Of a stretch of 64,000 nucleotides of DNA, positions 9,346 to 32,010 are shown piece by piece. The stretch lies in the sequence record NC_041936.1; one strand, 5' to 3'. The notes beneath the pieces are model-generated. The model was not told where the DNA came from. It saw only the letters and a list, made by a program, of their open reading frames with translations, and made no database searches. The stretch is from Escherichia phage ECD7. Position numbers and translations under genes: made by a program. Each line of letters begins with the position of its first letter. Positions within the stretch are counted from its first letter, which is position 1.

Positions 9346-10848
9346 ATGCAAGATATTAAAATTCACTTTCTGAACTATTCCCATGTTCAAATTGAATGTA
9401 GCGATTCAATTTTATTAGAAATGCGAGATTATTTTAGTTTTGAAGTCGAGGGAGCGCGGTTTCAAAAAAGATTTAAGTATGGTGGATGGGATGGGCGTAT
9501 TCGTCTTTTAGATTACAACGGAAAGCTGCCAATCGGCCTAACTAAAACCGTGGGAATCTTCGCTAAAAATATGGGCTATAGCGTATGGGTAGATCCTCGC
9601 TTATTCGAAAAAGAACAAGTTACAGAAGAAGAAATTACAAAATGGTGTAATGACTTAGAATTATATTCCGGTGCTAACAGGATCACCCCGCATTGGTATC
9701 AATCAAAGGCTGTCTTTGAAGGTATTCATCATAAACGCCGTATGTTAGTTTTGCCTACGTCCGCTGGTAAATCTGCGATTGCTTGTATGTTGTCTCGCTG
9801 GTACTTAGAGAACTACGAAGGGAAAGTGTTGATCATCGTTCCTACCACGTCGCTAGTGCTGCAAATGCGTGATGATTTTGTTGATTATCGCCAGTTTCCT
9901 TATGAAGCAATTCATACTATCATGAGCGGTACTAGTAAACACGTAGGTGATCGCCTGATCGTTGTTAGTACGTGGCAATCTGCATGTAAACAACCTCGTG
10001 AGTGGTTCCAGCAATTTGGGATGGTTATTGTTGACGAATGTCACAAAGCCACTGCTAAAAACCTGCTAAACATCGTTACTGATATGGATCATTGCCAATT
10101 TAAGATCGGCATGACTGGTTCCCCTCGTGACGGGAAAGCTAACATGATGCAGTATGTCGGGCTTTTCGGTGACATTTCCAAGATCGTGAGTATTGACCGC
10201 CTGATGGAAGAAGGCCAGGTGACAAAACTGAAAATTAACTGTCTTTTCCTTCGTTATACCGATGAGGAATGTAGCGCGGTTAAGGGTAGAGAATATGCGG
10301 AAGAGATCAAGTATATTACGTCTAACCCACGACGTAATAAGTTTGCTTGTAATTTGGCGCTAAAACTCGCTAAGAAGGGCGAAAACGTATTCCTGATGTT
10401 CCGCAATACTAAGCACGGAAAACTTATGTATGACGCGTTACAGAAGGTACACGACAAGGTTTATTATATTGACGGTGGAGTTAAGACAGAAGAACGTGAT
10501 GAATTTAAGAAATTAGCGGAAGGGGAAACCGGGATCATTTGTGTTGCGTCTTATGGTGTGTTCTCTACTGGTGTTTCAATTAAGAATTTGCACCATGTTA
10601 TTTTCGGTCATCCAGTGAAGGAATCAACTATCGTTCGTCAGAGTATCGGTCGTGCATTGCGTAAACATGGTTCGAAAGACATTGCAACGGTCTGGGATCT
10701 TATAGATCATCTGGCGGTGAAGACAAAGAGCAAGAATGCTAAGAAACAGTTTAGTCACCTTAATTATGCTCTTAAACATGCCCTTGAAAGAATAAAAATT
10801 TACAACACCGACCGATTCGAATATGTCACGAAAACCATCGAGATTTAA
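9346..10848 (+). CDS. uvsW: UvsW DNA/RNA helicase (SF2)
   Basis: 500 aa from ATG at 9346 (the track ORF starts at an upstream GTG); N-terminus DIKIHFLNYSHVQIEC...GWDGRIRLLDY and Walker A PTSAGKS match recalled T4 UvsW. Confidence 0.9.
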   Translation: MQDIKIHFLNYSHVQIECSDSILLEMRDYFSFEVEGARFQKRFKYGGWDGRIRLLDYNGKLPIGLTKTVGIFAKNMGYSVWVDPRLFEKEQVTEEEITKWCNDLELYSGANRITPHWYQSKAVFEGIHHKRRMLVLPTSAGKSAIACMLSRWYLENYEGKVLIIVPTTSLVLQMRDDFVDYRQFPYEAIHTIMSGTSKHVGDRLIVVSTWQSACKQPREWFQQFGMVIVDECHKATAKNLLNIVTDMDHCQFKIGMTGSPRDGKANMMQYVGLFGDISKIVSIDRLMEEGQVTKLKINCLFLRYTDEECSAVKGREYAEEIKYITSNPRRNKFACNLALKLAKKGENVFLMFRNTKHGKLMYDALQKVHDKVYYIDGGVKTEERDEFKKLAEGETGIICVASYGVFSTGVSIKNLHHVIFGHPVKESTIVRQSIGRALRKHGSKDIATVWDLIDHLAVKTKSKNAKKQFSHLNYALKHALERIKIYNTDRFEYVTKTIEI

Positions 10849-19076: not shown

Positions 19077-19553
19077 TAAATCATTGCAATATTTTAGTGC
19101 CTTAGTTTGAAATTCTGCGCTGTTAAGTTCTTCATAACGGTCATAATCACCGTTTAATGCTGCCTTTCTTGCTTCTTGCTCTATCTGCATGTCAGACATG
19201 ATAATACAGCGATCCCGCGCTTTCATCTTCTCAAGTTGTATAGACTCTTCTTTCTGCTTGCGCAATTCTTCTTGACGCTTCTTTTCTTCTTGTGCTTTCT
19301 CTTCCCGCGCTTCTTTGATTGCATCCTTGAACATCTGCGTTTGTGGTGCTAAACCAACTTTAACGCGATCCACGTCTCGACGTTCCATTTTAGAAATAAA
19401 GCATGATTCGATCTGATCATCACTTGCATATGCTGCTTTACATTCACGAAGCAAGAAAACCGGATCTGATTTAGCATTCATCATAGCTTCCATGTTGGCA
19501 CAACCAGTAAGCATGAATGCAGCCGCAAGACCAATCAGTTTAATCATTTTCAT
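19068..19553 (-). CDS. putative lipoprotein (161 aa)
   Basis: signal peptide with lipobox LTGC; charged coiled-coil middle; translationally coupled to the upstream ADP-ribosyltransferase. Confidence 0.6.
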   Translation of the reverse strand: MKMIKLIGLAAAFMLTGCANMEAMMNAKSDPVFLLRECKAAYASDDQIESCFISKMERRDVDRVKVGLAPQTQMFKDAIKEAREEKAQEEKKRQEELRKQKEESIQLEKMKARDRCIIMSDMQIEQEARKAALNGDYDRYEELNSAEFQTKALKYCNDLAK

Positions 19554-20374
19554 TTAGTCACCTCACCGAAAATTGTAAATTGTCTACGATTCTCATCGCC
19601 GAAAGATTCTACTACGTCGTTTACCTTGACGCAAGTCCCGCGCGGTAAAATTACTTCACATTCGCAAGGGTTCCATGCAATTGACCCAACAACAAAACCT
19701 TTATGATCTTTTACGTCAATTACCCATGATACATTACAAGAATGTTGCATCTTTCCGGTCATTGATTCATATCGATTCTCGCAATAAAGGCTAGTGCTGT
19801 TTGATAGCCATCCTCCAAAGATGATTGGTGTCATGCTGGTTGACACAAAGTTTTTAAAGGTAAATTCCTTATCTTCAATAATACGCTCTATTGTCTGAAT
19901 GTCAAGATGTTGACCGCGATAAAGAGTACCGTTTAACTTTTCGGTTTTATCCATGACACAATCCATCAAATCAACAATCTCTGATATCTCATCGGTCATG
20001 TCTTCTTCCCCTAAGAGAGCACCATTTACCCATTCGTATTGTTCGGACACATAATCACAGATTGCATTATATTCTGCTGGGGTTATGTTGTTATGTTTGT
20101 AATGTTTGAATACATTATCTCCAAAGTCTTCGGAGTGTACTTCATACATCACATTAATGATTTTCTTGACAAATCCATAATCTTGTGTCTCACGCTCAAG
20201 GAAGCGGATAACCTTCACATAATCATCAAAGTTAATCTGATCGCTGATCATCTCAGTGATCATGTAACCATTAATCCCCTCAATGTCATATGTTTCGATG
20301 TAATTATCCATACGTTCCATCATTGATTCGCGTGATTCTTCTGAAAGACGAAAATCCTGTAATTTCTTGAACAT
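19550..20374 (-). CDS. ADP-ribosyltransferase (Alt/Mod-like, 274 aa)
   Basis: R-S-E triad: LYRG, FVSTS, CECE; same motifs as the Alt C-terminus (ILYRG, YVSTS, KECE). Confidence 0.7.
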   Translation of the reverse strand: MFKKLQDFRLSEESRESMMERMDNYIETYDIEGINGYMITEMISDQINFDDYVKVIRFLERETQDYGFVKKIINVMYEVHSEDFGDNVFKHYKHNNITPAEYNAICDYVSEQYEWVNGALLGEEDMTDEISEIVDLMDCVMDKTEKLNGTLYRGQHLDIQTIERIIEDKEFTFKNFVSTSMTPIIFGGWLSNSTSLYCENRYESMTGKMQHSCNVSWVIDVKDHKGFVVGSIAWNPCECEVILPRGTCVKVNDVVESFGDENRRQFTIFGEVTK

Positions 20375-20452: not shown

Positions 20453-22504
20453 TTACATTTTAAATTTATCTGGCATTGCGTCTACAGATACCAGATCAGC
20501 GATAAGCTGACGTAGAGTTGCCTTATCTGCTTTCTTACGTTCGGTTTTAGCTTCGCTAATGAAGCTGGAGAAAGACAGGTCAGAAGCAGGTTTAACAACA
20601 CCCTCACGGATGAATGCATCACCGTCCGCGATCATCTCACCAGATTCTTGTAATGCTGCCAGTTCACTTTTGTTCATAATATGTGCCTCAATGTAATAAG
20701 TTTCTTGTGAATCCGTCGATGCCGTAGCACGAGTTACCGTATCAAAGGATAACACAACACCGCGAGGAAGTAAAATCTCGCATTCTTTGTAAGCAAATGC
20801 TTTGTTACCTACTGGCAATACAGGGATGTTTTCCGCGCCAGCGATAGAGAAAGCAACATTAGCGCCACCTTCACCGCGAGAGCCAGCCATAGAATCAACA
20901 CCAGCAACGGCACTAGCCACGTTTGCATTCCAGCCACCAAAAATATTAGGCGCAAGGGAAGTGCTCACATAGTTTTTAAAGTAAAACGCTTTTTGCTTAC
21001 GTGCAGTTTCCCACATTTGCGACCGGAAGTCCATACCACGATACAGAATAGTACCCGGATCAAGTTTAACACCATAGTTAGAGAAGGCATTATCCAGTGC
21101 ATCGCACATCTTGACCAATTCTTCTGGATCTGCGATTCCCTCAAACTCTTCCAGCTTGCGATCAGTTAGGAAGTTGTTCATATTGATGTATGCTGCATCG
21201 GCATATTCGCTCAACACAAAACCTTCCGCGCCCGGCAGATCAAGATCAATATCTGCCATCATTTCACCCATGTTGCTAGCAATTGCTTCAAACATACCGG
21301 ACGCAACATTACGAAGGGCATCGGTTTTAATCTGGGTGATATGACTACGCAGCATTTCAGCTTTTACATCTGCTGGCATAGACTGGTCTACTCGATCCAT
21401 TGCCAGGGCGGTGATCTTGTTTTCGAATACTTCCTCGCTCATGATTTCTTTTAAGCGTTTGATTGAGGCTGCGATAACTTCCGCAGACAACGGATCATAT
21501 TGATCCTGAACTTTTACCAGTTCGCTTACTGCGTATTTTGCATCGGCTTCGCTTTCAAAAATAGTACGCATGAAACCATAGCGAGTGATAATATCACTTG
21601 TCCAGTCATTCAGAGAACGGGCGGTTGAACGTTCTAAGGCTTGACGGTCAATCAGAGTATTAAACTGTTTCTTAGGTTCGGCTTCGGTGATATCTTCTTC
21701 CGGTTTAAGATTAATTTTTTCTGGATGATTCACGTAGTCGCTGTTATAGGTCGCTTGAGTTTTCAGCATTTCTTCTTTAGTCAAACGAGATTTAGCCGCT
21801 ACGCGTTGTTCTGCTTCCGCGTTTCGTTCTTCTTCTGACACAAGACTAGCCGCATACGCCTCATCTTTAGTCAGAGATTCACCAGTAGCCTTAGATACCC
21901 AGCGATCACCTAAATCACTTTCTACTTTAGTGAACAAGGATTCATCAAGTTTAATCCCTTTAATCTTATCAATCGCCATCCCGCGACGTTTGACAACAAC
22001 TAAAGCGATCTTTTTGCTGGTCATTACTTCCTGCTGGAATACTTCAAACTTCGGTGTACGACGCACCAAACGCTCTATAACGCGCTTAACCAGTTCGGTC
22101 TTACCTTTCATGCGGGATACGTTAAAACGGAACATAACAGCGTCTAATTGCGCTTTACGGGCTGTTTCCATAACCACATCAAAAGCACTTGCCATAACTG
22201 CAATCGGGTTATCACCTAGACCATTTTTAAGCTGTACAATACGACCGCTTTTGTTCATTTCACACAGTACAACGTGTGCGGTCTTGTCACCCATACGAAT
22301 AATTTTAGGTGTTTTGTTGGTGAAGTTGCAAAGACGGACAATCACATCTTTATCGCGTGTCTGTACTGCAAAAAGCTGTTTAGGATTCTGCTTAGGCTTT
22401 AAGCATTGTACCGGAGCAATACTGCCAAAGTTTTCTTCCTCTTCCGTCAACAGCCATTTCTCGAAAGATTCAATCATTAGATCGTCGATTTCTAAGTTAA
22501 ACAT
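20453..22504 (-). CDS. alt: Alt ADP-ribosyltransferase (packaged internal head protein)
   Basis: 683 aa (T4 Alt is 682); C-terminal ART motifs; position after gene 54 as in T4. Confidence 0.85.
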   Translation of the reverse strand: MFNLEIDDLMIESFEKWLLTEEEENFGSIAPVQCLKPKQNPKQLFAVQTRDKDVIVRLCNFTNKTPKIIRMGDKTAHVVLCEMNKSGRIVQLKNGLGDNPIAVMASAFDVVMETARKAQLDAVMFRFNVSRMKGKTELVKRVIERLVRRTPKFEVFQQEVMTSKKIALVVVKRRGMAIDKIKGIKLDESLFTKVESDLGDRWVSKATGESLTKDEAYAASLVSEEERNAEAEQRVAAKSRLTKEEMLKTQATYNSDYVNHPEKINLKPEEDITEAEPKKQFNTLIDRQALERSTARSLNDWTSDIITRYGFMRTIFESEADAKYAVSELVKVQDQYDPLSAEVIAASIKRLKEIMSEEVFENKITALAMDRVDQSMPADVKAEMLRSHITQIKTDALRNVASGMFEAIASNMGEMMADIDLDLPGAEGFVLSEYADAAYINMNNFLTDRKLEEFEGIADPEELVKMCDALDNAFSNYGVKLDPGTILYRGMDFRSQMWETARKQKAFYFKNYVSTSLAPNIFGGWNANVASAVAGVDSMAGSRGEGGANVAFSIAGAENIPVLPVGNKAFAYKECEILLPRGVVLSFDTVTRATASTDSQETYYIEAHIMNKSELAALQESGEMIADGDAFIREGVVKPASDLSFSSFISEAKTERKKADKATLRQLIADLVSVDAMPDKFKM

Positions 22505-22857: not shown

Positions 22858-23376
22858 TTAGTTATTTTTTAATTGCTCATCTTGCAATAGGGCAATCACA
22901 TGCTGGCGATGTTCTTCCGATTGAGGCACACCGAAAAAGTTTGTTTTGTAGAAATACTCTAATCGGTCTTCTCGTGTGCTCTCTTCCATCATGATCGCGG
23001 GTAGTCCGAGATTTCGGAAACGTCGCTTTTCTGCTGGCGTAAAATCACTGTAATACAGCATATAATCATCATTACCAGCAATGCTAAACTCATCCTTCAT
23101 GAAAGAGAATATTGCGTTTAAACGCTGTTTACCGTCCACGATTTCGATTTCATAGCGAGAGCCATCATCAATCTTAGCCATTGCGATAGCACCAACCGGA
23201 AAATCATTAATCAGGTTTTCGATAAACATACGTTTGTTTTCTGTGTCCCATACCAAAGGACGCTGATAATCTGGGTTCATGTTGATATAGCCATCTTCTA
23301 ACCATGCTTCGTAAACAGAGATGACAAAGTTTTTAGTATTGGTATAGTAACGGCGTTTAGGCGTTAAACGGTTCAT
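22858..23376 (-). CDS. DUF262 (ParB-like / GmrSD N-terminal domain) protein
   Basis: DYQRPLVW and IVDGKQRL motifs typical of DUF262; start at internal Met with AGGAG RBS. Confidence 0.55.
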   Translation of the reverse strand: MNRLTPKRRYYTNTKNFVISVYEAWLEDGYINMNPDYQRPLVWDTENKRMFIENLINDFPVGAIAMAKIDDGSRYEIEIVDGKQRLNAIFSFMKDEFSIAGNDDYMLYYSDFTPAEKRRFRNLGLPAIMMEESTREDRLEYFYKTNFFGVPQSEEHRQHVIALLQDEQLKNN

Positions 23377-23377
23377 A

Positions 23378-23707
23378 TTATAGTCTCCTGAATGGATCAT
23401 CACGTAAATCAATATCTTTTAAGAACTCATCCCATGAATGGCGGATATTGTTCTTAATTCTCCAGATAAGCGCAGGGATTGAACGCTCTCCCATCTGGAA
23501 GTAAGGATCATATGATCCGTATGCCCAATATGCTACTACAATTCCACAATCAGCGCAATAGTATTCTATTTCACTTGCTGGCGACCAAAGTCCATCAATA
23601 TGATCAGTGATCTTGCTTTCGATGTTATGGCTATGACAATCAGGGCAACGGATGCAATGACCTTGTTTATCGTAATTTGACGTTAGAGAATACTTAAACA
23701 ATCTCAT
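23378..23707 (-). CDS. zinc-ribbon protein (109 aa)
   Basis: CxxC...CxxC (CIRCPDC ... CADCG); TAATG coupling to the methyltransferase-like gene. Confidence 0.5.
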   Translation of the reverse strand: MRLFKYSLTSNYDKQGHCIRCPDCHSHNIESKITDHIDGLWSPASEIEYYCADCGIVVAYWAYGSYDPYFQMGERSIPALIWRIKNNIRHSWDEFLKDIDLRDDPFRRL

Positions 23708-24953: not shown

Positions 24954-24982
24954 ATTGTAGGGGAGTTATCCTCCCCTGTCAA
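24954..24982 (-). promoter_or_regulatory. sigma70-like early promoter with palindromic spacer
   Basis: minus TTGACA - 17 nt (GGGGAGGATAACTCCCC) - TACAAT. Confidence 0.55.
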
Positions 24983-24996
24983 CACTTTTTATAAAA

Positions 24997-25164
24997 TTAT
25001 TTGTTAATTTCTGGTGCGTTGCTCGGATAGTAACCTTCTTTAACGCCCAGGTATTTCGCAACCATCCCTACAATCTTCTGTGCTACTACAATGTCAAATT
25101 TCAGATAATCTTCGCCGTGGGTTTCAATGATATATGCTTCACATGCTGCTTTAGTCTCGAACAT
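24997..25164 (-). CDS. small protein (55 aa), paralog of 28255-28422
   Basis: MFETKAACEAYIIETHGEDYLKFDIVVAQKI...; 50/55 residues identical to the second copy. Confidence 0.5.
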   Translation of the reverse strand: MFETKAACEAYIIETHGEDYLKFDIVVAQKIVGMVAKYLGVKEGYYPSNAPEINK

Positions 25165-25197
25165 TTTGATTCTCCTATTTCGTTTCGGTATGGGTGT

Positions 25198-25227
25198 ATT
25201 ATAGGGGATCTCCCGATCCCCGTCAAC
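25198..25227 (-). promoter_or_regulatory. sigma70-like early promoter with palindromic spacer
   Basis: minus TTGACG - GGGATCGGGAGATCCCC - TATAAT. Confidence 0.6.
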
Positions 25228-25240
25228 AACTTTTTTAAAA

Positions 25241-25555: not shown

Positions 25556-25584
25556 ATTATGCTATGTTCTTACTTTGGTGTCAA
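25556..25584 (-). promoter_or_regulatory. sigma70-like early promoter (no palindrome)
   Basis: minus TTGACA - 17 nt - CATAAT. Confidence 0.5.
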
Positions 25585-25901: not shown

Positions 25902-25930
25902 ATTATGCTATACACAGGATCTGGTGTCAA
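25902..25930 (-). promoter_or_regulatory. sigma70-like early promoter
   Basis: minus TTGACA - 17 nt - CATAAT. Confidence 0.5.
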
Positions 25931-25954: not shown

Positions 25955-25980
25955 TAAAAAAGCCGACGCTATGGTCGGCT
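25955..25980 (-). terminator. rho-independent terminator
   Basis: AGCCGAC/GTCGGCT hairpin with A-run on plus. Confidence 0.55.
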
Positions 25981-25987
25981 AATAAAA

Positions 25988-26296
25988 TCATTTAGACAAA
26001 TAATCATTCTGTGCAATCCGGTCGGCGTATGCTGGTGTTATGTCAATCGCCAGCACTTTAACGCGTGCTTTCTTGCGACCTGGGTTTTCTCGTAACCAGT
26101 GCTCATGACCGTGAATATTTTTATACTGCGATGCTTCTTCGAAGGTACGGATCGGACCTGGGTAATCAGCGTAAAGGATCTCTAGATCTTCGGTGATGTA
26201 AAAATATACATCGTAATTGCTGTTCTCTAGCTTAAGCAGAGACTTTCGGAACATTGGGAGATTTTCGCGGGTAAATTCAAAGATATTATCTTTCAT
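25988..26296 (-). CDS. HxHW-family small protein, member 1 (102 aa)
   Basis: YDVYFYITEDLEI...HGHEHWL...KVLAIDI; shares the family motif with five paralogs. Confidence 0.55.
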   Translation of the reverse strand: MKDNIFEFTRENLPMFRKSLLKLENSNYDVYFYITEDLEILYADYPGPIRTFEEASQYKNIHGHEHWLRENPGRKKARVKVLAIDITPAYADRIAQNDYLSK

Positions 26297-26319
26297 AGTA
26301 TTATCCTCAATAGTTGGAT

Positions 26320-26340
26320 GAAAAGGGGCGTTAACGCCCC
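26320..26340 (-). terminator. GC hairpin (terminator or attenuator)
   Basis: GGGGCG-TTAA-CGCCCC between two same-strand genes. Confidence 0.4.
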
Positions 26341-26346
26341 CATATA

Positions 26347-26634
26347 TTAAAACAGTCCTTCCTGTACACCGTAGTAGAGTTCGTCGCTGATAATTTCATT
26401 AATGCGACGGTGTGCATATTCCTGATTTGCGAAGTTGTCAGCAAGTTCTACTTTAGTTTCGCCGTCATGAGTCCATTTAGTGATAACTTTACCATCTGCA
26501 AATTTGAAGTTGAACTCTTTAGCTACTGCATCGCGTACCAGACGTGCAAACTTATTGTTGCGGATTGCATTGTCGGTTTCGTGTGCAGCGTGAGCAAATT
26601 TGTTAACTTTCAGAGTGATAGTGATGTATGCCAT
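26347..26634 (-). CDS. small hypothetical protein (95 aa), paralog of 29640-29951
   Basis: shared segment AKEFNxK. Confidence 0.5.
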   Translation of the reverse strand: MAYITITLKVNKFAHAAHETDNAIRNNKFARLVRDAVAKEFNFKFADGKVITKWTHDGETKVELADNFANQEYAHRRINEIISDELYYGVQEGLF

Positions 26635-26680
26635 AATTTGATTCTCCTAGTTAGAAAGTGTATCTCGTTTCGATGGGGAT

Positions 26681-26709
26681 ATTATGCTATACCCCCGATC
26701 TGGTGTCAA
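26681..26709 (-). promoter_or_regulatory. sigma70-like early promoter
   Basis: minus TTGACA - 17 nt - CATAAT. Confidence 0.5.
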
Positions 26710-26715
26710 CACTTT

Positions 26716-26994
26716 TTATAAAATAATTTTTTGATATTTTTCTATGATGTTCGTGTAAGTCACATCAACCGCTAGCACCGTTGCTTCGAATCCACCGTTT
26801 AGCCAATGGCTATGATCATGGTCGTGAAAGAAACCTAGTCCAGTACGAAGACCTTCTTTATATTCTGCGCGTACATTCAGTTTGTCGTCGATAAACAGAT
26901 AAAACCATGAATTTTTACTAGGATTGATGATACAACCTTTCAGATTAGGGAGAATATCACGACTAAGAATAAATTTATCACCTACTTTGAACAT
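26716..26994 (-). CDS. HxHW-family small protein, member 2
   Basis: WFYLFIDDKLNV...HDHDHSHWL...VLAVDV; start set at ATG with RBS (the track start is GTG). Confidence 0.55.
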   Translation of the reverse strand: MFKVGDKFILSRDILPNLKGCIINPSKNSWFYLFIDDKLNVRAEYKEGLRTGLGFFHDHDHSHWLNGGFEATVLAVDVTYTNIIEKYQKIIL

Positions 26995-26998
26995 AATA

Positions 26999-27319
26999 TT
27001 AGTCCTCACTTATAAGGTCAAACCAATTGTTTTTCGCATAATGCTTAATGCGTGCTTGATCTGCTTCCGCTGGTGATAGATTCCATGCAACCACTACAAC
27101 TTCTGACGCATCGTCATCAGTTTCTGATACCCAATGATTGTGATTCATACAGTTATTTGCTATCGAGTGAGCAAATGATTTCATCACTGGAGACGTATAA
27201 TCATAGTAACGGATTTTCAGATTTTCATCAACATACAAATAGATCGTATAAGGTTTATATTCAGTAACCAGTAACAGACAGTTACGCAATTCTGGGAAAA
27301 TCTTTTTAGTTAATTTCAT
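26999..27319 (-). CDS. HxHW-family small protein, member 3 (106 aa)
   Basis: YTIYLYVDENLKI...NHNHWV...VVVAWNL. Confidence 0.5.
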   Translation of the reverse strand: MKLTKKIFPELRNCLLLVTEYKPYTIYLYVDENLKIRYYDYTSPVMKSFAHSIANNCMNHNHWVSETDDDASEVVVVAWNLSPAEADQARIKHYAKNNWFDLISED

Positions 27320-27521
27320 ATTCTAGTTCTCCGTAATACACAGTAATCCATTTTTCTTCATACTTTGTATCTTTCCAGCACACAACCCCGTTTACTGTGC
27401 AATCTTTGGAATTGACGAATGATTCATATTGTTCTGCATCTTCCATCATTTCATGAGCGGTCTTTTCATCGAATATATCGCAGATCGCTTTATATGCTCG
27501 ATAATCTTTAAATTTGCTCAT
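27306..27521 (-). CDS. small protein MSKFKDY..., tandem paralog a
   Basis: N-terminus MSKFKDYRAY shared with the adjacent gene. Confidence 0.45.
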   Translation of the reverse strand: MSKFKDYRAYKAICDIFDEKTAHEMMEDAEQYESFVNSKDCTVNGVVCWKDTKYEEKWITVYYGELEYEIN

Positions 27522-27523
27522 AA

Positions 27524-27733
27524 TTAACACCACTCAAGAGTTTTTGAAAACACATCTATCCATTGTTGAGTATATGCGGTTTCTTTCCATGATACAATAC
27601 CAGTCGAATAATGGTTTTTGTTTCCAGAAAAGGACGGGCATTTTGATGCATCTTCCATCATCTTTTCGGCGAACTCTGGTGCGTATACTCGCAAGATCTG
27701 TTGATATGCTTTGTAGTCTTTAAATTTGCTCAT
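27524..27733 (-). CDS. small protein MSKFKDY..., tandem paralog b (69 aa)
   Basis: N-terminus MSKFKDYKAY; W...W.....W pattern shared. Confidence 0.45.
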   Translation of the reverse strand: MSKFKDYKAYQQILRVYAPEFAEKMMEDASKCPSFSGNKNHYSTGIVSWKETAYTQQWIDVFSKTLEWC

Positions 27734-27998
27734 AATCGTTAACTACCTTATCAGCTTCTTTTATTGTTTTTACATCAACTGCGATAATACGTAAAGGTTC
27801 GTCGAAGGTCCACCAATGATCGTGAATATCAGCTTGTGATTTATCACCAAAGGAATCACGAATATCATTTTTACATTTATAGCTAATGTGACCGTTATAG
27901 TCAACATAAAGGTAATTATCGAAAATCGGCGTTTTTAAGATCATACCGAAAAATCTTTCTTTGTGTGTCTTATCCAGCGTTGCAGTAATTCGCATCAT
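27720..27998 (-). CDS. HxHW-family small protein, member 4 (92 aa)
   Basis: NYLYVDYNGHI...HDHWW...IIAVDV. Confidence 0.55.
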   Translation of the reverse strand: MMRITATLDKTHKERFFGMILKTPIFDNYLYVDYNGHISYKCKNDIRDSFGDKSQADIHDHWWTFDEPLRIIAVDVKTIKEADKVVNDYEQI

Positions 27999-28010
27999 AA
28001 TATATTCCTC

Positions 28011-28190
28011 TTAGAAAGGGATGGTCATTTCTTGAGCTTGTACATTCTCGTTAGGATTAAACTTCATCCAACCGATATTGTCTACCAGCATATACACATT
28101 TTTATCATATCCTACGTGAGTAGTCAACACTAAATGTGCTTTACCTTCAACGATGATTTCCATGTACTTCTGAACTTCGATAGCTTTCAT
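28011..28190 (-). CDS. small hypothetical protein (59 aa)
   Basis: ATG with GGAGA RBS; below the track cutoff. Confidence 0.35.
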   Translation of the reverse strand: MKAIEVQKYMEIIVEGKAHLVLTTHVGYDKNVYMLVDNIGWMKFNPNENVQAQEMTIPF

Positions 28191-28222
28191 TTTGATTCTC
28201 CGTTTGTTGTCTTGATGGGAGT

Positions 28223-28251
28223 ATCTTACTACTCCCTTTAATCATTGTCAA
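28223..28251 (-). promoter_or_regulatory. promoter-like element with conserved stem-loop (weak -10 TAAGAT)
   Basis: minus TTGACA - 17 nt - TAAGAT overlapping the GGGAGTAGTAAGATACTCCC palindrome; 30 bp identical to 63911-63940. Confidence 0.4.
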
Positions 28252-28254
28252 CGA

Positions 28255-28422
28255 TTATTTGTTAATTTCCGGTGCGTTGCTTGGATAGTAACCTTCTTTA
28301 ACACCCAGATATTTTGCAACCATTCCGGTGATCTTCTGTGCCACTACGATATCGAATTTCAGGTAGTCTTCACCGTGGGTTGCTACAATGTATGCTTCGC
28401 ATTCTGCTTTAGTCTGGAACAT
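28255..28422 (-). CDS. small protein (55 aa), paralog of 24997-25164
   Basis: MFQTKAECEAYIVATHGEDYLKFDIVVAQKI... Confidence 0.5.
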   Translation of the reverse strand: MFQTKAECEAYIVATHGEDYLKFDIVVAQKITGMVAKYLGVKEGYYPSNAPEINK

Positions 28423-28455
28423 TTTGATTCTCCTTTATCTCGTTGGTATGTGTGC

Positions 28456-28484
28456 ATTATAGGGGATCACCGATCCCCTGTCAA
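28456..28484 (-). promoter_or_regulatory. sigma70-like early promoter with palindromic spacer
   Basis: minus TTGACA - GGGGATCGGTGATCCCC - TATAAT. Confidence 0.6.
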
Positions 28485-28489
28485 CAACT

Positions 28490-28783
28490 TTATAATGCTT
28501 TATATGCGTATTTCATAAATTTGTCTGCCACTTCATTGGCATGTTCAGATTCTACGCCTGATTCGAGAACAATAGCTAGGTCGGTTTCGTCATTCCCGCC
28601 GTACCAATGATTTGATGTTCGATTTTTTTCAATTGGAAATTGGTCACTTTTATCTGTGCGACAAAATACATCTAAATGCTCGTCGATGTAAAAGATCCAA
28701 TCTTCATAAAGAATAACGGTATTAGCCAGATTTTTATTGCCTTCAACGAAAGGTTCGGCTACAAACAAATTAGTATGTTCCAT
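28490..28783 (-). CDS. HxHW-family small protein, member 5
   Basis: WIFYIDEHLDV...SNHWY...LAIVLE; start at internal Met with GAGGA RBS. Confidence 0.45.
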   Translation of the reverse strand: MEHTNLFVAEPFVEGNKNLANTVILYEDWIFYIDEHLDVFCRTDKSDQFPIEKNRTSNHWYGGNDETDLAIVLESGVESEHANEVADKFMKYAYKAL

Positions 28784-28799
28784 AGTAATTTCCTCAAAA

Positions 28800-28991
28800 T
28801 TATACAGCTTCGTAAACTTCCCAATGTCCAACACCAGCACGCTTAACGAAAAGGTTTTCTTTGATGTTATTCATAAACGTCTGGATGGATTTAATGCGGT
28901 TTGAAGGTTTCCATTCTTCGTTGGCATTGCGTCGATACATCATAACATTACCAGTTCGCTTATATTCAGCAACCATTTTAAGACCACACAT
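28800..28991 (-). CDS. small hypothetical protein (63 aa)
   Basis: ORF in the early cluster. Confidence 0.4.
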   Translation of the reverse strand: MCGLKMVAEYKRTGNVMMYRRNANEEWKPSNRIKSIQTFMNNIKENLFVKRAGVGHWEVYEAV

Positions 28992-29048
28992 AATATTATC
29001 CTCAATTTGCGGGAGAGTATTACCCCTCCCAATGATTGTTATGTTATA

Positions 29049-29369
29049 TCACACAAAATGGCGTGTCAATGCTTCTTTTGCGGTTCCGCTAAGACTTTCG
29101 ATCTCGCCTGGCATAACATCAACCGCCAGAACTTCTACAACATCCTCGGACCCTAACCAGTGAGTATGGCCTTTGTAGAACTTGATAACCAGACTACCTT
29201 CCTCGTCCCATTTAACGCTATCGCTAGCCCACCACACATCACCGTCGATAAAGTTGATGTAAAGCACACTACGCAACATTGAATTAATTACTTTCAATAC
29301 TGCGCCTTTCATCTCTTCCACGGTATGGTCTTCCATTTTGAAGACCATACCTACCTGAACTTTTGCCAT
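29049..29369 (-). CDS. HxHW-family small protein, member 6 (106 aa)
   Basis: VLYINFIDGDV...GHTHWL...VLAVDV. Confidence 0.55.
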   Translation of the reverse strand: MAKVQVGMVFKMEDHTVEEMKGAVLKVINSMLRSVLYINFIDGDVWWASDSVKWDEEGSLVIKFYKGHTHWLGSEDVVEVLAVDVMPGEIESLSGTAKEALTRHFV

Positions 29370-29386: not shown

Positions 29387-29566
29387 TTACATAACAATCA
29401 CGCCAGCCGTTGAAAGTTGATGTTTCAACTGAGCATTTTCTGCTACCGTCAAATCAATGATTTCTTGTGACGCTGCAATCATATATCCATTGGTGATATT
29501 GTTTTGCATCAGTTCAATGGTTTCTTCGTTGTAGCGGATTTTAGCGATGATTTCGTTGAAGTTCAT
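29387..29566 (-). CDS. small hypothetical protein (59 aa)
   Basis: ATG with GGAGAATC RBS-like context; below the track cutoff. Confidence 0.35.
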   Translation of the reverse strand: MNFNEIIAKIRYNEETIELMQNNITNGYMIAASQEIIDLTVAENAQLKHQLSTAGVIVM

Positions 29567-29600: not shown

Positions 29601-29630
29601 AGTATAGGGGATCTCCCGATCCCCTGTCAA
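29601..29630 (-). promoter_or_regulatory. sigma70-like early promoter with palindromic spacer
   Basis: minus TTGACA - GGGGATCGGGAGATCCCC - TATACT. Confidence 0.55.
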
Positions 29631-29639
29631 CAACTTTTT

Positions 29640-29951
29640 TTAAAGTTTTTCCATGATAACGGTCATAATTACATCTTCTGCGCGAGCGGTCAGATTATCA
29701 GCGTCAGCATGTGGGCGGTTGGTTGTTACAGAGATAACACCGTTGCGCACTGGTTTGATATTGATATCAAGATGATCCGCGAAACGTTCGCCAGTTACAG
29801 AATGAATTTTGGTGTTAAATTCTTTTGCCAGTGCCTTGCGAACTTCACGAATCAGGGTAGCGTTTTTCAGTTGGTTCTCCGCGCTCATGGTCTTCTGGGT
29901 GTTCATGGTTCCGTCGAAGTCAATCATTGGCAGCGTTACGATGTATTTCAT
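29640..29951 (-). CDS. small hypothetical protein (103 aa), paralog of 26347-26634
   Basis: shared AKEFNTK segment. Confidence 0.5.
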   Translation of the reverse strand: MKYIVTLPMIDFDGTMNTQKTMSAENQLKNATLIREVRKALAKEFNTKIHSVTGERFADHLDINIKPVRNGVISVTTNRPHADADNLTARAEDVIMTVIMEKL

Positions 29952-29996: not shown

Positions 29997-30025
29997 AGTA
30001 TAGGGGATACGTGATCCCCTGTCAA
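29997..30025 (-). promoter_or_regulatory. sigma70-like early promoter with palindromic spacer
   Basis: minus TTGACA - GGGGATCACGTATCCCC - TATACT. Confidence 0.55.
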
Positions 30026-30038
30026 CAACTTTTTTGAA

Positions 30039-30515
30039 TTATTTTTCTTGATGCTCGCGCTCGTACTTTTCGAAATAAAATTCTACTGGCTGGTCATGAA
30101 TTGACAGCAAGCCAAAGCGTTTAGCCGCTCGCAATCCCATATTGCGCTGAATGTACTTCTGGAAGTTCTCGCGTATACACTTACGCCAGTATTCTAAGCC
30201 CATACAGCTTTTATAAAGATTGCATTGTACACACGCCGGATTCATGTTATCAAGTATATCATGTTCCGGTTTATGCATTCCTACAACCTTATACTTCCAC
30301 GACCCATCATCATTACGGGCAATTCGTCCATTTTCATCATAGACTACCTTTGAGCGTCGCAATACTGGTTTGATATGGTCTGCGTGCCAGCGATCCCCTA
30401 GTTCCTCGCCACAATAGGCACAACGCCCACCGTATTTCATTTTCAGGATCTGGCGTTGCTCTTTCTTTGACAATTTTTTAGGTTTAGGGGCTTTCGCCCC
30501 TTCATTATCACACAT
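30039..30515 (-). CDS. HNH endonuclease (158 aa)
   Basis: CAYCGEELGDRWHADHIKP ... CVQCNLYK HNH zinc-finger nuclease motif; overlaps the 3' end of ligase by 8 nt. Confidence 0.65.
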   Translation of the reverse strand: MCDNEGAKAPKPKKLSKKEQRQILKMKYGGRCAYCGEELGDRWHADHIKPVLRRSKVVYDENGRIARNDDGSWKYKVVGMHKPEHDILDNMNPACVQCNLYKSCMGLEYWRKCIRENFQKYIQRNMGLRAAKRFGLLSIHDQPVEFYFEKYEREHQEK

Positions 30516-32010
30516 CGAATACCTCTTTTACTGTATTTGCAGTGGTCTTGTCGTAGCGAATACGTTTGATGATTGGGAGAAATAAAGAGAACTCCGGTTC
30601 ATCTTCTTTACGTGATTTGCTGCGGATATACCCGTTGCATGTCATCTCAATGACTTTTCCAATCAGGTTATGACGGTCAGTCCATAACATTTCTCGGTCG
30701 AGTTCATTTCGACGATCGAACGGAATTACACGTTCAGTACCATCATCACCTTTTTCGGTTGTAGTGTCGGTTAATCCCGATCCGGTGTTAGTCATCATTC
30801 GTCCGCACGCACTACGGACAGTAAAACCGCCTACCTTATTGGGGTCTTTACTATGCGGATATACATCAACAATTTCCGCGTCGAAGTCAATCACTTCTTT
30901 AAATTTAACCTGATCTTTACTACGGCGATCTTCAAATACACCATGTAAATTTTTAAGGATAATACCTTCTAAGCCCATGTTTACATAGCGATGATATACT
31001 TCGCGAGCTTCATCGATATTGTTAACTACAGTGTTTTCGATTATCTGAACACGAGGATCGTTAAGTTCTTCAACAATCTGTTTTAGCTCTTCGAATCGAT
31101 CTTTATATTGCTTCGTTGCTTTCTCGTTTCCGTAATACACATCACGGTCGATAACATCCCAGACAGTGTAAACAATACATTGGGCTTCTTCTTTTGGAAT
31201 AGTTCCTTTCAGTGATTTGTTGAGGATACCATTTCCGGTCTGACGATCTGCAACAACGGATTCTTTCACCGCTTCCGCTACTGGCGTTAATGGCATTTCC
31301 TCTTCTTCAAATATCCATGACAGAGTACCATCATAAACGCTCTCAACGAAGTTCTGCGCTGGTGTTTGCGAAAGGGTAGGCATATATACCAATTCGCCAT
31401 CTAGAACAATTCCACGGCCTCGTAGACTCTCTAAAACCGCAAACAAATCATCAAGCCCTTGATAGGTATTACCTGAACGGGTATAGATTGCTAATGTTTC
31501 CCCGTCAATATCAGCCATACCACGAGCGCCATCGCTTTTAAGTTGTGCATACGCCGGATATTTGATATTGGCAATGGTCTTATCAGAACATGACGATGCA
31601 AGGTGGCACGGCTGCTGGGGGATCAGTTTCTTCCATACCTTGTTTGCAGTGGTAGCGGAACAACCGCATTCCAGGTCACGATTCAGGACCATCATTGCAA
31701 CTTTAGCATCATCTTCTGACAAGCAAGTCAGAGTATCGGTAACTAGCTGTAATGCTGCATTACCAGTTACTTGACGTGTGGCAAGTTTATTTTTAAAGAC
31801 TTGTAATGCACCGGATAAAGACAATACAGACGAATAGCGCGATGGTTTATCGTATTTCTTTACGCCAAACGTAACCTGTTTGCAATATGCCAGATAAAAG
31901 CATTCTTTCAGTGTTTCATTGCTTGCAGATTCTTTCAGGATCTTTTCTTTCAGCGATGTTTTGTCTGTTGCTGCAAGCTGATTAATGATATTAAGAATTG
32001 ACATTTTCAC
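30508..32010 (-). CDS. 30: ATP-dependent DNA ligase gp30
   Basis: 500 aa; GLEGIILKN, KGTIPKEEAQC, FKEVIDFDAEIVDVYPH colinear with recalled T4 DNA ligase. Confidence 0.9.
   Translation of the reverse strand: MKMSILNIINQLAATDKTSLKEKILKESASNETLKECFYLAYCKQVTFGVKKYDKPSRYSSVLSLSGALQVFKNKLATRQVTGNAALQLVTDTLTCLSEDDAKVAMMVLNRDLECGCSATTANKVWKKLIPQQPCHLASSCSDKTIANIKYPAYAQLKSDGARGMADIDGETLAIYTRSGNTYQGLDDLFAVLESLRGRGIVLDGELVYMPTLSQTPAQNFVESVYDGTLSWIFEEEEMPLTPVAEAVKESVVADRQTGNGILNKSLKGTIPKEEAQCIVYTVWDVIDRDVYYGNEKATKQYKDRFEELKQIVEELNDPRVQIIENTVVNNIDEAREVYHRYVNMGLEGIILKNLHGVFEDRRSKDQVKFKEVIDFDAEIVDVYPHSKDPNKVGGFTVRSACGRMMTNTGSGLTDTTTEKGDDGTERVIPFDRRNELDREMLWTDRHNLIGKVIEMTCNGYIRSKSRKEDEPEFSLFLPIIKRIRYDKTTANTVKEVFDV

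Follow-up and report, generated by a model that had tools for sequence, protein, structure and literature searches.

T4-like phages of the RB49/phi1 group carry hyperplastic regions in which small ORFan genes are arranged in cassettes, flanked by so-called PeSL elements that combine a σ70-type early promoter with a stem-loop (Arbiol et al. 2010, PMC2839356; Comeau et al. 2014, PMC4122927). A PeSL stem has been shown by experiment to be an efficient terminator, and one of the RB49 elements, PeSL206/205, proved to be a very strong promoter in a reporter assay, at about 13,000 Miller units (PMC2839356). We focus here on six small genes, p1 to p6, on the minus strand of a 64,000-nucleotide stretch (the window) of Escherichia phage ECD7 (NC_041936.1). 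They lie between alt (20453-22504, minus strand, with an ADPrib_exo_Tox match) and the DNA ligase gene (30508-32010), in the early accessory region that is the same as the PeSL-rich hyperplastic region described for RB49 and phi1 (PMC2839356), and this location is as the original prediction for this DNA had proposed. The six genes share with the published cassettes the phage group, the genomic region and the arrangement of small ORFans behind a σ70 promoter and stem-loop; they have no homologues outside this phage group, and, as among the published cassettes, related genomes show cassette replacement in one case and shuffled order in another. Judged from sequence comparisons, the six genes are true homologues and form one paralogous family, marked by a near-invariant His-x-His-Trp (HxHW) motif. 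Whether sequences, profiles or predicted folds are compared, this family has no detectable relation to any characterised protein, and in that sense it is new.

The individual proteins are already in the databases as hypotheticals and the regulatory cassettes have been published; what is new is the recognition of the six open reading frames (ORFs) as one family, together with its HxHW signature. In a text search of the earlier RB49 study (Arbiol et al. 2010, PMC2839356), neither paralogues nor these ORF numbers were found to be mentioned. A search of the literature on Krischvirus and RB49, combined with anti-defence, paralogues or these ORFs, likewise found no functional study, no family and no report of HxHW. 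To our knowledge, neither Arbiol et al. nor Comeau et al. report the six ORFs as one family or describe the motif.

All six ORFs that had been proposed on the minus strand are present, with the motif strings originally quoted, and each begins with ATG preceded, 5-9 nt upstream, by a GAGG/GGAG-type ribosome-binding site. The gene p1 (25988-26296; 102 aa; IHGHEHWL ... VLAIDI), the last of its putative operon, is the orthologue of RB49p197 and matches phrog_9345 (6e-49), the family that also holds p3 (26999-27319; 106 aa; MNHNHWV ... VVAWNL; RB49p200). The others fall into separate PHROGs, namely p2 (26716-26994; 92 aa; HDHDHSHWL ... VLAVDV; RB49p199) into phrog_17255, p4 (27720-27998; 92 aa; DIHDHWW ... 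IIAVDV; RB49p203) into phrog_15972, p5 (28490-28783; 97 aa; TSNHWY ... VLESGV; RB49p206) into phrog_15965 and p6 (29049-29369; 106 aa; KGHTHWL ... VLAVDV; RB49p208) into phrog_16486. Each of these five PHROGs is listed as of unknown function, and in RB49 all of the orthologues (197, 199, 200, 203, 206 and 208) are annotated 'hypothetical protein'. The products are soluble proteins of 10.7-12.5 kDa with isoelectric points (pI) of 4.5-6.9, and they contain 0-2 Cys each, none of them conserved across the paralogues. The most divergent and most acidic member is p5 (pI 4.5), which in ECD7 lacks both the first His and the Asp; its orthologues mostly read THNHWY/ASDV, unlike the SNHW of the ECD7 copy. 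At 93-98% identity, the 4.5-kb stretch around the six genes matches 57 phage records, all of them Krischvirus (RB49-like) with E. coli or Shigella hosts, phage JEP8 being the best match at 97.9%, and p2 is 97-100% identical in four other Krischvirus genomes.

The homology of the six, already suspected in the original prediction, is borne out by blastp, by hidden Markov models (HMMs) and by hhalign alike. First of all, pairwise blastp links p1 with p3 (2e-13) and p1 with p6 (1e-5), and p1 with p4, p2 with p4 and p2 with p6 at about 1e-3; p5 gave nothing significant against the other five. Second, when all 595 ORFs from the six frames of the window were searched with HMMs built from five orthologue groups, the excluded paralogue was always the best non-training match, with expectation values (E) of ~3e-12 for p1, 1.5e-9 for p2, ~2e-14 for p3, 1e-6 for p4, 3.7e-4 for p5 and 1.2e-9 for p6, the next matches lying at E 0.1 or worse. 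Third, hhalign joins the p5-like branch to the rest with a probability of 98.7% (E 2e-16 over 70 columns). Finally, the pattern H.HW occurs in five of the 595 ORFs, against 0.46 expected, and all five are family members; a search for a seventh member in the window found none. The ratios of nonsynonymous to synonymous substitution (dN/dS) of p1 to p6 against RB49, JK32, kvi and Skers are 0-0.4, bar one uninformative near-identical pair, with values of 0.20-0.39 for p1 and 0.09-0.24 for p5, and indicate that all six genes are under purifying selection.

Conservation between the paralogues, which are only 15-33% identical, is concentrated in few places. The alignment of the six sequences has just three invariant columns, M1, one His and the Trp, and H-x-H-W is the sole near-invariant polar feature. 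Invariance of its His residues in homologues, a check proposed with the original prediction, holds for the second His, which like the Trp is found in every homologue, and less strictly for the first, which is present in at least 90%. Between the two His stands a polar residue in every case, and this suggests that the loop is exposed. The paralogue consensuses further share a hairpin of strands b3 and b4, h-Y-h-D-x-x-L-x-V; the hydrophobic residue that follows H-x-H-W; and strand b5, V-L-A-x-[D/N/G]-V, which runs into the S/T-P-x-E-A-D start of a helix. Two details of the signature as first described have to be amended. The element Y-x-Y-I-D-x-x-L is not N-terminal and lies at residues ~28-45, in the predicted b3-b4 hairpin, and the [VL]-x-A-[IV]-D-[IV] element is strict in four of the six, with VVAWNL in p3 and VLESGV in p5. 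The comparison of consensuses found no conserved third ligand, general base, Glu, Ser or Cys across the paralogues.

AlphaFold2 (AF2) models of p1 (mean predicted local distance difference test, pLDDT, 79; predicted template-modelling score, pTM, 0.74) and p2 (pLDDT 84, pTM 0.76) arrange their elements alike, as b1-a1-b2-b3-b4-a2-[HxHW segment]-b5-a3, and the family is thus predicted to have one compact alpha/beta fold common to the paralogues. The HxHW segment is the part modelled with the lowest confidence, at pLDDT 55-68. Models of other Krischvirus paralogues in BFVD resemble the p1 model with template-modelling (TM) scores of 0.55-0.68, and a structural search of BFVD with the p1 model gave nothing significant outside Krischvirus.

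The family is narrow, lineage-specific and old. Among 5.8 billion proteins, an indexed search found 87 matches, each a 70-99% orthologue of one of p1 to p6. A tblastn search of 50,697 phage records with p1, p6 and two distant members found Krischvirus only, bar chance matches (p6 to four Gordonia phages, E = 2). An hmmsearch with a six-sequence profile against 1.84 billion representatives clustered at 50% identity gave 20 proteins at E <=1e-3, about 19 of which are real (P0101 is a spurious repeat protein), and the real clusters all come from Krischvirus or uncultured T4-like relatives. Wherever the recovered contig is long enough, the member lies at the same ligase-alt locus. The 12 full-length distant members (P0088-P0099) read H-[N/D]-H-W in every case but one (P0093, D-N-H-W); a further match, P0100, is a frameshifted p5 fragment that stops short of the motif. 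RB49, JK32, kvi and Skers have exactly six members each in identical gene order, and, given this and how little identity the copies retain, the duplication is older than the genus. The sixfold amplification originally proposed stands as to number; it is ancient and not recent.

Individual positions in the array are nevertheless plastic. In a 169-kb Krischvirus contig (L089; ENA ERZ27275844 k141_85339), whose ligase is 98.6% identical to that of ECD7, the segment comprising the phrog_8471 gene at 27306-27533, p3 and p2 is replaced, at 10001-10674, by two divergent p3-like genes (P0091 and a P0090-like one). These are 45-54% identical to p3, the flanking genes being 97-100% identical to ECD7; no p2-type member is present. 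This is an allele or cassette replacement within the array. A more distant T4-like phage (contig L091; ligase 71% and Alt 46% identical) has two family members in the ligase-alt interval, where homologues of the region's other small ORFs surround them in shuffled order. A contig of 2.1 kb (L087; Logan SRR8048117) holds four adjacent family genes, of which one (P0088, 823-1434) is a single ORF of 203 aa with two HxHW-family domains in tandem, both matching the family HMM at ~1e-11 to 1e-12. The p1 orthologue is frameshifted into two annotated ORFs in phage JSE (EU863408 122873-123177; P0087) and truncated to 85 aa with an altered C-terminus in phage kvi (L003 7001-7258; P0069), which, if these disruptions are real, would suggest that p1 is dispensable.

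A disruption of p2 can be put aside. RB49, whose cytosine is classically described as unmodified, has p2 intact. In phage TB34 (OX001802; L086 5430), a 1-nt insertion frameshifts the p2 orthologue at codon 52, relative to phage SAP (OZ034687, L085). The variant table for these two phages contains dozens of single-base frameshifts, some of them in the genes for DNA polymerase, sliding clamp and topoisomerase (PMC13390438). Since even essential replication genes are affected, we regard the p2 frameshift as assembly noise, and a link between p2 and the unexplained difference in cytosine modification between SAP and TB34 (PMC13390438) was rejected.

Comparison with known families supports the initial impression that this one is unrecognised. 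Searches of Pfam, NCBIfam and PADLOC gave no match above threshold, NCBIfam yielding just two sub-threshold chance matches, and profile searches of the Protein Data Bank (PDB) stayed at chance level (Spindlin, E 0.06 with profile A1; PhtD, 1.5; arabinase, 1.3). The weak top matches that recur are AcrIIA7 and ModTad2 (both DUF2829), the Tas1 immunity protein Tis1, Cif/C39 papain-like domains and SH3-like barrels. DUF2829 (PF11195), the family of Tad2 and AcrIIA7, resembles ours in consisting of beta-rich phage proteins of ~90-100 aa with a conserved Trp, and a functional analogy as abundant early binders is possible. A DUF2829 consensus retrieves AcrIIA7 and Tad2 from the PDB and displays the DUF2829 signature, and for the profile comparison we assembled 67 DUF2829 sequences from IMG/VR. 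Aligned to these 67 by hhalign, the HxHW family (profiles A2 and A5 and the non-p5 subgroup) reached a probability of 0.2-0.4%, compared with 98.7% for the control of subgroup against subgroup, and a Pfam scan of 34 members at E up to 10 gave no DUF2829 match. The DUF2829 signature, an N-terminal FGEAL helix, GWNGK and a C-terminal W..SQTDxLAxDW strand, is absent from p1 to p6, which end in a helix, whereas DUF2829 lacks the HxHW motif and has its secondary-structure elements in another order. We thus rejected a DUF2829 identity: the structural resemblance to Tad2 and AcrIIA7 is weak and non-homologous, and probably reflects a generic small sheet plus helix.

A weak likeness to SH3-like small beta-barrels (Tudor/Spindlin, KOW, Sm, ribosomal L2, RimP) was also seen. 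The N-terminal 45 residues of the family align weakly to a Spindlin Tudor repeat, at the E of 0.06 given above, and the match is gone with the deeper profiles A2 and A5; one orthologue of p2 from a metagenome-assembled genome (MAG) carries the automatic label 'KOW2-KOW3 of Spt5'. Unlike these barrels, the family has a 25-30-residue insertion, made of a helix and the HxHW loop, between strands 4 and 5, as well as a C-terminal helix. Several readings of the His motif itself fail on motif spacing, on conservation in orthologues and on profile or fold matches. HIT hydrolases were rejected, since the H-phi-H-phi-H-phi-phi pattern with its hydrophobic spacers and the HIT fold are absent; JAMM/MPN (including PROCT), since neither the E...H-x-H-x(7)-S-x(2)-D motif nor the MPN profile was found; and HNH, although many members read H-N-H-W, since the residues are contiguous and no member has a Pfam HNH match. 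Cupin and Pht readings fail on the same grounds. Targeting to the capsid in the manner of T4 internal proteins was rejected by inspection, as an N-terminal L-x-E cleavage motif does not occur consistently, the proteins begin with strands that are modelled with confidence and the promoters are early ones only.

The arrangement of promoters bears on when these proteins are made. [quoted passage not shown] The PeSL early promoter at 29601-29630 (minus strand; TTGACA-18-TATACT, scan score 11/12; GGGGATC/GATCCCC stem between the boxes, -15.9 kcal/mol; repeat families D3-D5) precedes, on the same strand, the gene at 29387-29566, p6, the gene at 28800-28991 and p5. A σ70-like early promoter at 28223-28251 (minus strand; TTGACA-17-TAAGAT, 10/12; repeat family D8) precedes the genes at 28011-28190, p4, 27524-27733, 27306-27533, p3 and p2. 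Finally, the PeSL early promoter at 26681-26709 (minus strand; TTGACA-17-CATAAT; stem-loop of -14.3 kcal/mol) precedes 26347-26634 and p1, directly 3' of which stands an intrinsic terminator (25961-25980, minus strand; GCCGACC...GGTCGGC plus T-run; -11.5 kcal/mol, z -3.7). Judged by gene spacing, the six genes would thus lie in three early operons. Directly 3' of p5, the PeSL at 28456-28484 (minus strand) has a perfect TTGACA-17-TATAAT (12/12) with stem and corresponds to PeSL206/205 of RB49. No T4-type late promoter TATAAATA was found between 24 and 30.6 kb, and with σ70 PeSL-type promoters upstream of the operons the six proteins should appear as soon as infection begins.

The original prediction raised metal binding, catalysis and anti-defence as possible roles, and these are reasonable guesses; metal or ligand binding together with a role in host takeover or anti-defence is plausible. 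Our preferred, tentative reading is that the family consists of oligomeric early effectors, in which the HxHW loop would be a shared metal or ligand site and the diverged surfaces would meet different targets. The proteins would act stoichiometrically, as accessory and non-essential factors in host takeover or counter-defence. They would work as oligomers, with the His-x-His-Trp loop binding either a metal ion or a small ligand, anionic or aromatic, at a site probably completed across the subunit interface, and the highly diverged remainder of the surface would give each paralogue a target or specificity of its own. A shared binding site is suggested by the fact that HxHW is the only conserved polar feature and lies in a poorly modelled, probably exposed loop, low pLDDT in such a segment being typical of sites that are completed by a ligand or partner. 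The tandem two-domain protein P0088 hints at an oligomer. There are precedents for sites of this kind: in the spike tips of P2 gpV and phi92 gp138, several subunits contribute their HxH motifs to one metal site, and the phage 'sponge' proteins Tad1, Tad2 and Acb2 bind their ligands at subunit interfaces. With the gpV and gp138 spike apex and the HxxHxH triads of pneumococcal Pht proteins, the family shares a short motif in which His residues alternate with others and an aromatic residue comes next. There is, on the other hand, no homology between them (PhtD is the sole PDB sequence match with profile A2, at the non-significant E of 1.5) and the fold context is entirely different, and metal binding by the phage family remains putative. 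The slot swap in L089, the p1 disruptions and the copy number of two in L091 amount to accessory, arms-race-like behaviour. A stronger version, in which the family would be a new-fold effector class with a multi-subunit HxHW metal or nucleotide site, its paralogues directed at different immune signals or proteins and its allele swapping the mark of an arms race, is unlikely.

Several observations weigh against the oligomeric-effector reading. PADLOC gave no match at E up to 1, and there is no anti-defence homology. The p5 of ECD7 lacks the first His and is yet under purifying selection, so that the HxHW site is not indispensable for every member. The "AVDV" Asp position is D, N or G across the wider family and precedes the S/T-P-x-E helix-cap box, which makes an HxH+D metal triad doubtful; this Asp is probably structural rather than a metal ligand. 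The AF2 models were built on the six-sequence alignment only. The fusion P0088 is known from one 2.1-kb metagenomic contig and may owe its length to a stop codon lost through sequencing error, and the p1 disruptions in JSE and kvi may be sequencing errors as well.

Among the alternatives, the likeliest, which we consider possible if doubtful, holds that HxHW is purely structural, with a buried Trp and His residues engaged in hydrogen bonds or a structural Zn, and that each paralogue is a monomeric, stoichiometric inhibitor of another host protein. Such inhibitors might work like T4 AsiA, Arn, Dmd or proteins of the Ocr type. In favour of this reading, conservation outside the motif falls on hydrophobic residues of the core (YLYID and V-L-A-x-D/N-V), the proteins share with many phage inhibitors and mimics an acidic character, which here ranges from mild to strong, and p5 tolerates the loss of the first His. 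It is, however, unusual for a structural role that two solvent-type His are kept across paralogues this divergent, and the always-polar residue between them points to an exposed loop.

It is distinctly unlikely that the proteins are immune-signal sponges, homo-oligomers sequestering the nucleotide second messengers that CBASS, Thoeris, Pycsar or type III CRISPR systems use. By analogy with Tad1, Tad2 and Acb2, the Trp would stack on the base, the His would contact phosphates and the six paralogues would cover different signals. Very strong early promoters would suit a stoichiometric sponge, and the size and solubility of the proteins fit, but the detailed comparison with DUF2829 speaks against it. 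The topology differs, DUF2829 starting with a helix and ending on its W...SQTDxLAxDW strand, and the hhalign probability against the 67 sequences, the 0 of 34 members matched by Pfam and the probably generic nature of the resemblance all point the same way.

Two further readings are both improbable. In the first, the proteins would be small metal-dependent enzymes, with HxH and acidic residues forming a catalytic centre, possibly across a dimer, for hydrolysing or modifying a host molecule, for instance a nucleotide signal, nucleic acid or cofactor. HxH with its alternate positions is the classic metal-ligand arrangement of cupin, JAMM, metallo-beta-lactamase (MBL) and carbonic anhydrase enzymes, p2 has a sub-threshold PROCT/MPN-like match (E 0.0017) and one member a Cupin_2 match (E 0.2). 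These Pfam matches are, however, all below the cut-offs and none is common to several paralogues; no fold match of the family to any metalloenzyme was found, 92-106 aa is very small for an enzyme, and a third conserved ligand, a general base and conserved Glu, Ser or Cys are absent, the Asp itself being replaceable by N or G. In the second, rated alike, the six would be obligate subunits of one hetero-oligomeric particle whose HxH motifs meet at a central metal, which would explain their co-retention and co-expression. Five isolate genomes do retain all six members without a change of order, and by Rosetta-stone logic the tandem fusion P0088 could be read in this way. Nonetheless, L091 has two members only, L089 lacks a p2-type member, p1 is apparently disrupted in JSE and kvi, and evolutionary rates differ widely among the paralogues. 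Finally, functionless or selfish cargo, that is, ORFans spread by PeSL-mediated recombination and mini-circles, would suit a PeSL-rich hyperplastic region with documented cassette gain and loss (PMC2839356) and other duplicated cassettes nearby, but is hardly credible given dN/dS of ~0-0.4 for all six genes, motif residues kept across very deep divergence and synteny conserved across the genus.

The rest of the ligase-alt region has features of its own. It is punctuated throughout by the PeSL cassettes known from RB49/phi1, a series of near-consensus σ70 promoters, most of which have a G-rich/C-rich stem-loop between or beside the -35 and -10 boxes; they lie on the minus strand at 24954-24982, 25198-25226, 25556-25584, 25902-25930, 26681-26709, 28456-28484, 29601-29630 and 29997-30025. 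Next to alt, 19550-20374 (minus strand) encodes a second ADP-ribosyltransferase of 274 aa, which resembles the Alt C-terminus and has an ADPrib_exo_Tox match. For the 184-aa product of 22858-23412 (minus strand), the match to GmrSD type IV restriction enzymes is confined to their N-terminal DUF262 domain (PF03235, 6e-20); as a restriction-enzyme domain without its nuclease half, it could be a decoy or inhibitor. At the other end, an HNH endonuclease gene (30039-30515, minus strand; PF01844) overlaps by its start the end of the ligase gene by 8 nt and occupies the same place in RB49, JK32 and Skers. The small ORFs neighbouring p1 to p6 all belong to PHROGs without assigned function, of which phrog_7474, phrog_8471 and phrog_8009 are duplicated in the region. 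The phrog_7474 paralogues are at 26347-26634 (95 aa) and 29640-29951 (103 aa), and those of phrog_8471 form an overlapping tandem pair at 27306-27533 (75 aa) and 27524-27733 (69 aa), with a DNA repeat that is 70% identical; homologues of both pairs are present in the distant contig L091. A direct repeat of 238 nt, 84% identical (24996-25233 and 28254-28491), contains in each copy a PeSL and a 55-aa ORF of phrog_8009 (24997-25164 and 28255-28422), and appears to stem from a cassette that was duplicated fairly recently.

Krischvirus phages are widely isolated and are used as therapeutic E. coli and Shigella phages, and this eight-kilobase early region is annotated only as "hypothetical". If the family were to consist of generic structural ORFans without phenotype, the value of our finding would be modest and mainly annotational, and what we present is a candidate, clean and tractable, and not the demonstration of a new mechanism. 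With five PHROGs collapsing into one family with one motif, six anonymous ORFs become a single tractable target. Having no match in the characterised families or solved folds searched, the family is likely a new entry among phage early effectors, and the exchange of slots between genomes that are nearly identical makes the array a probable hot spot of host interaction.

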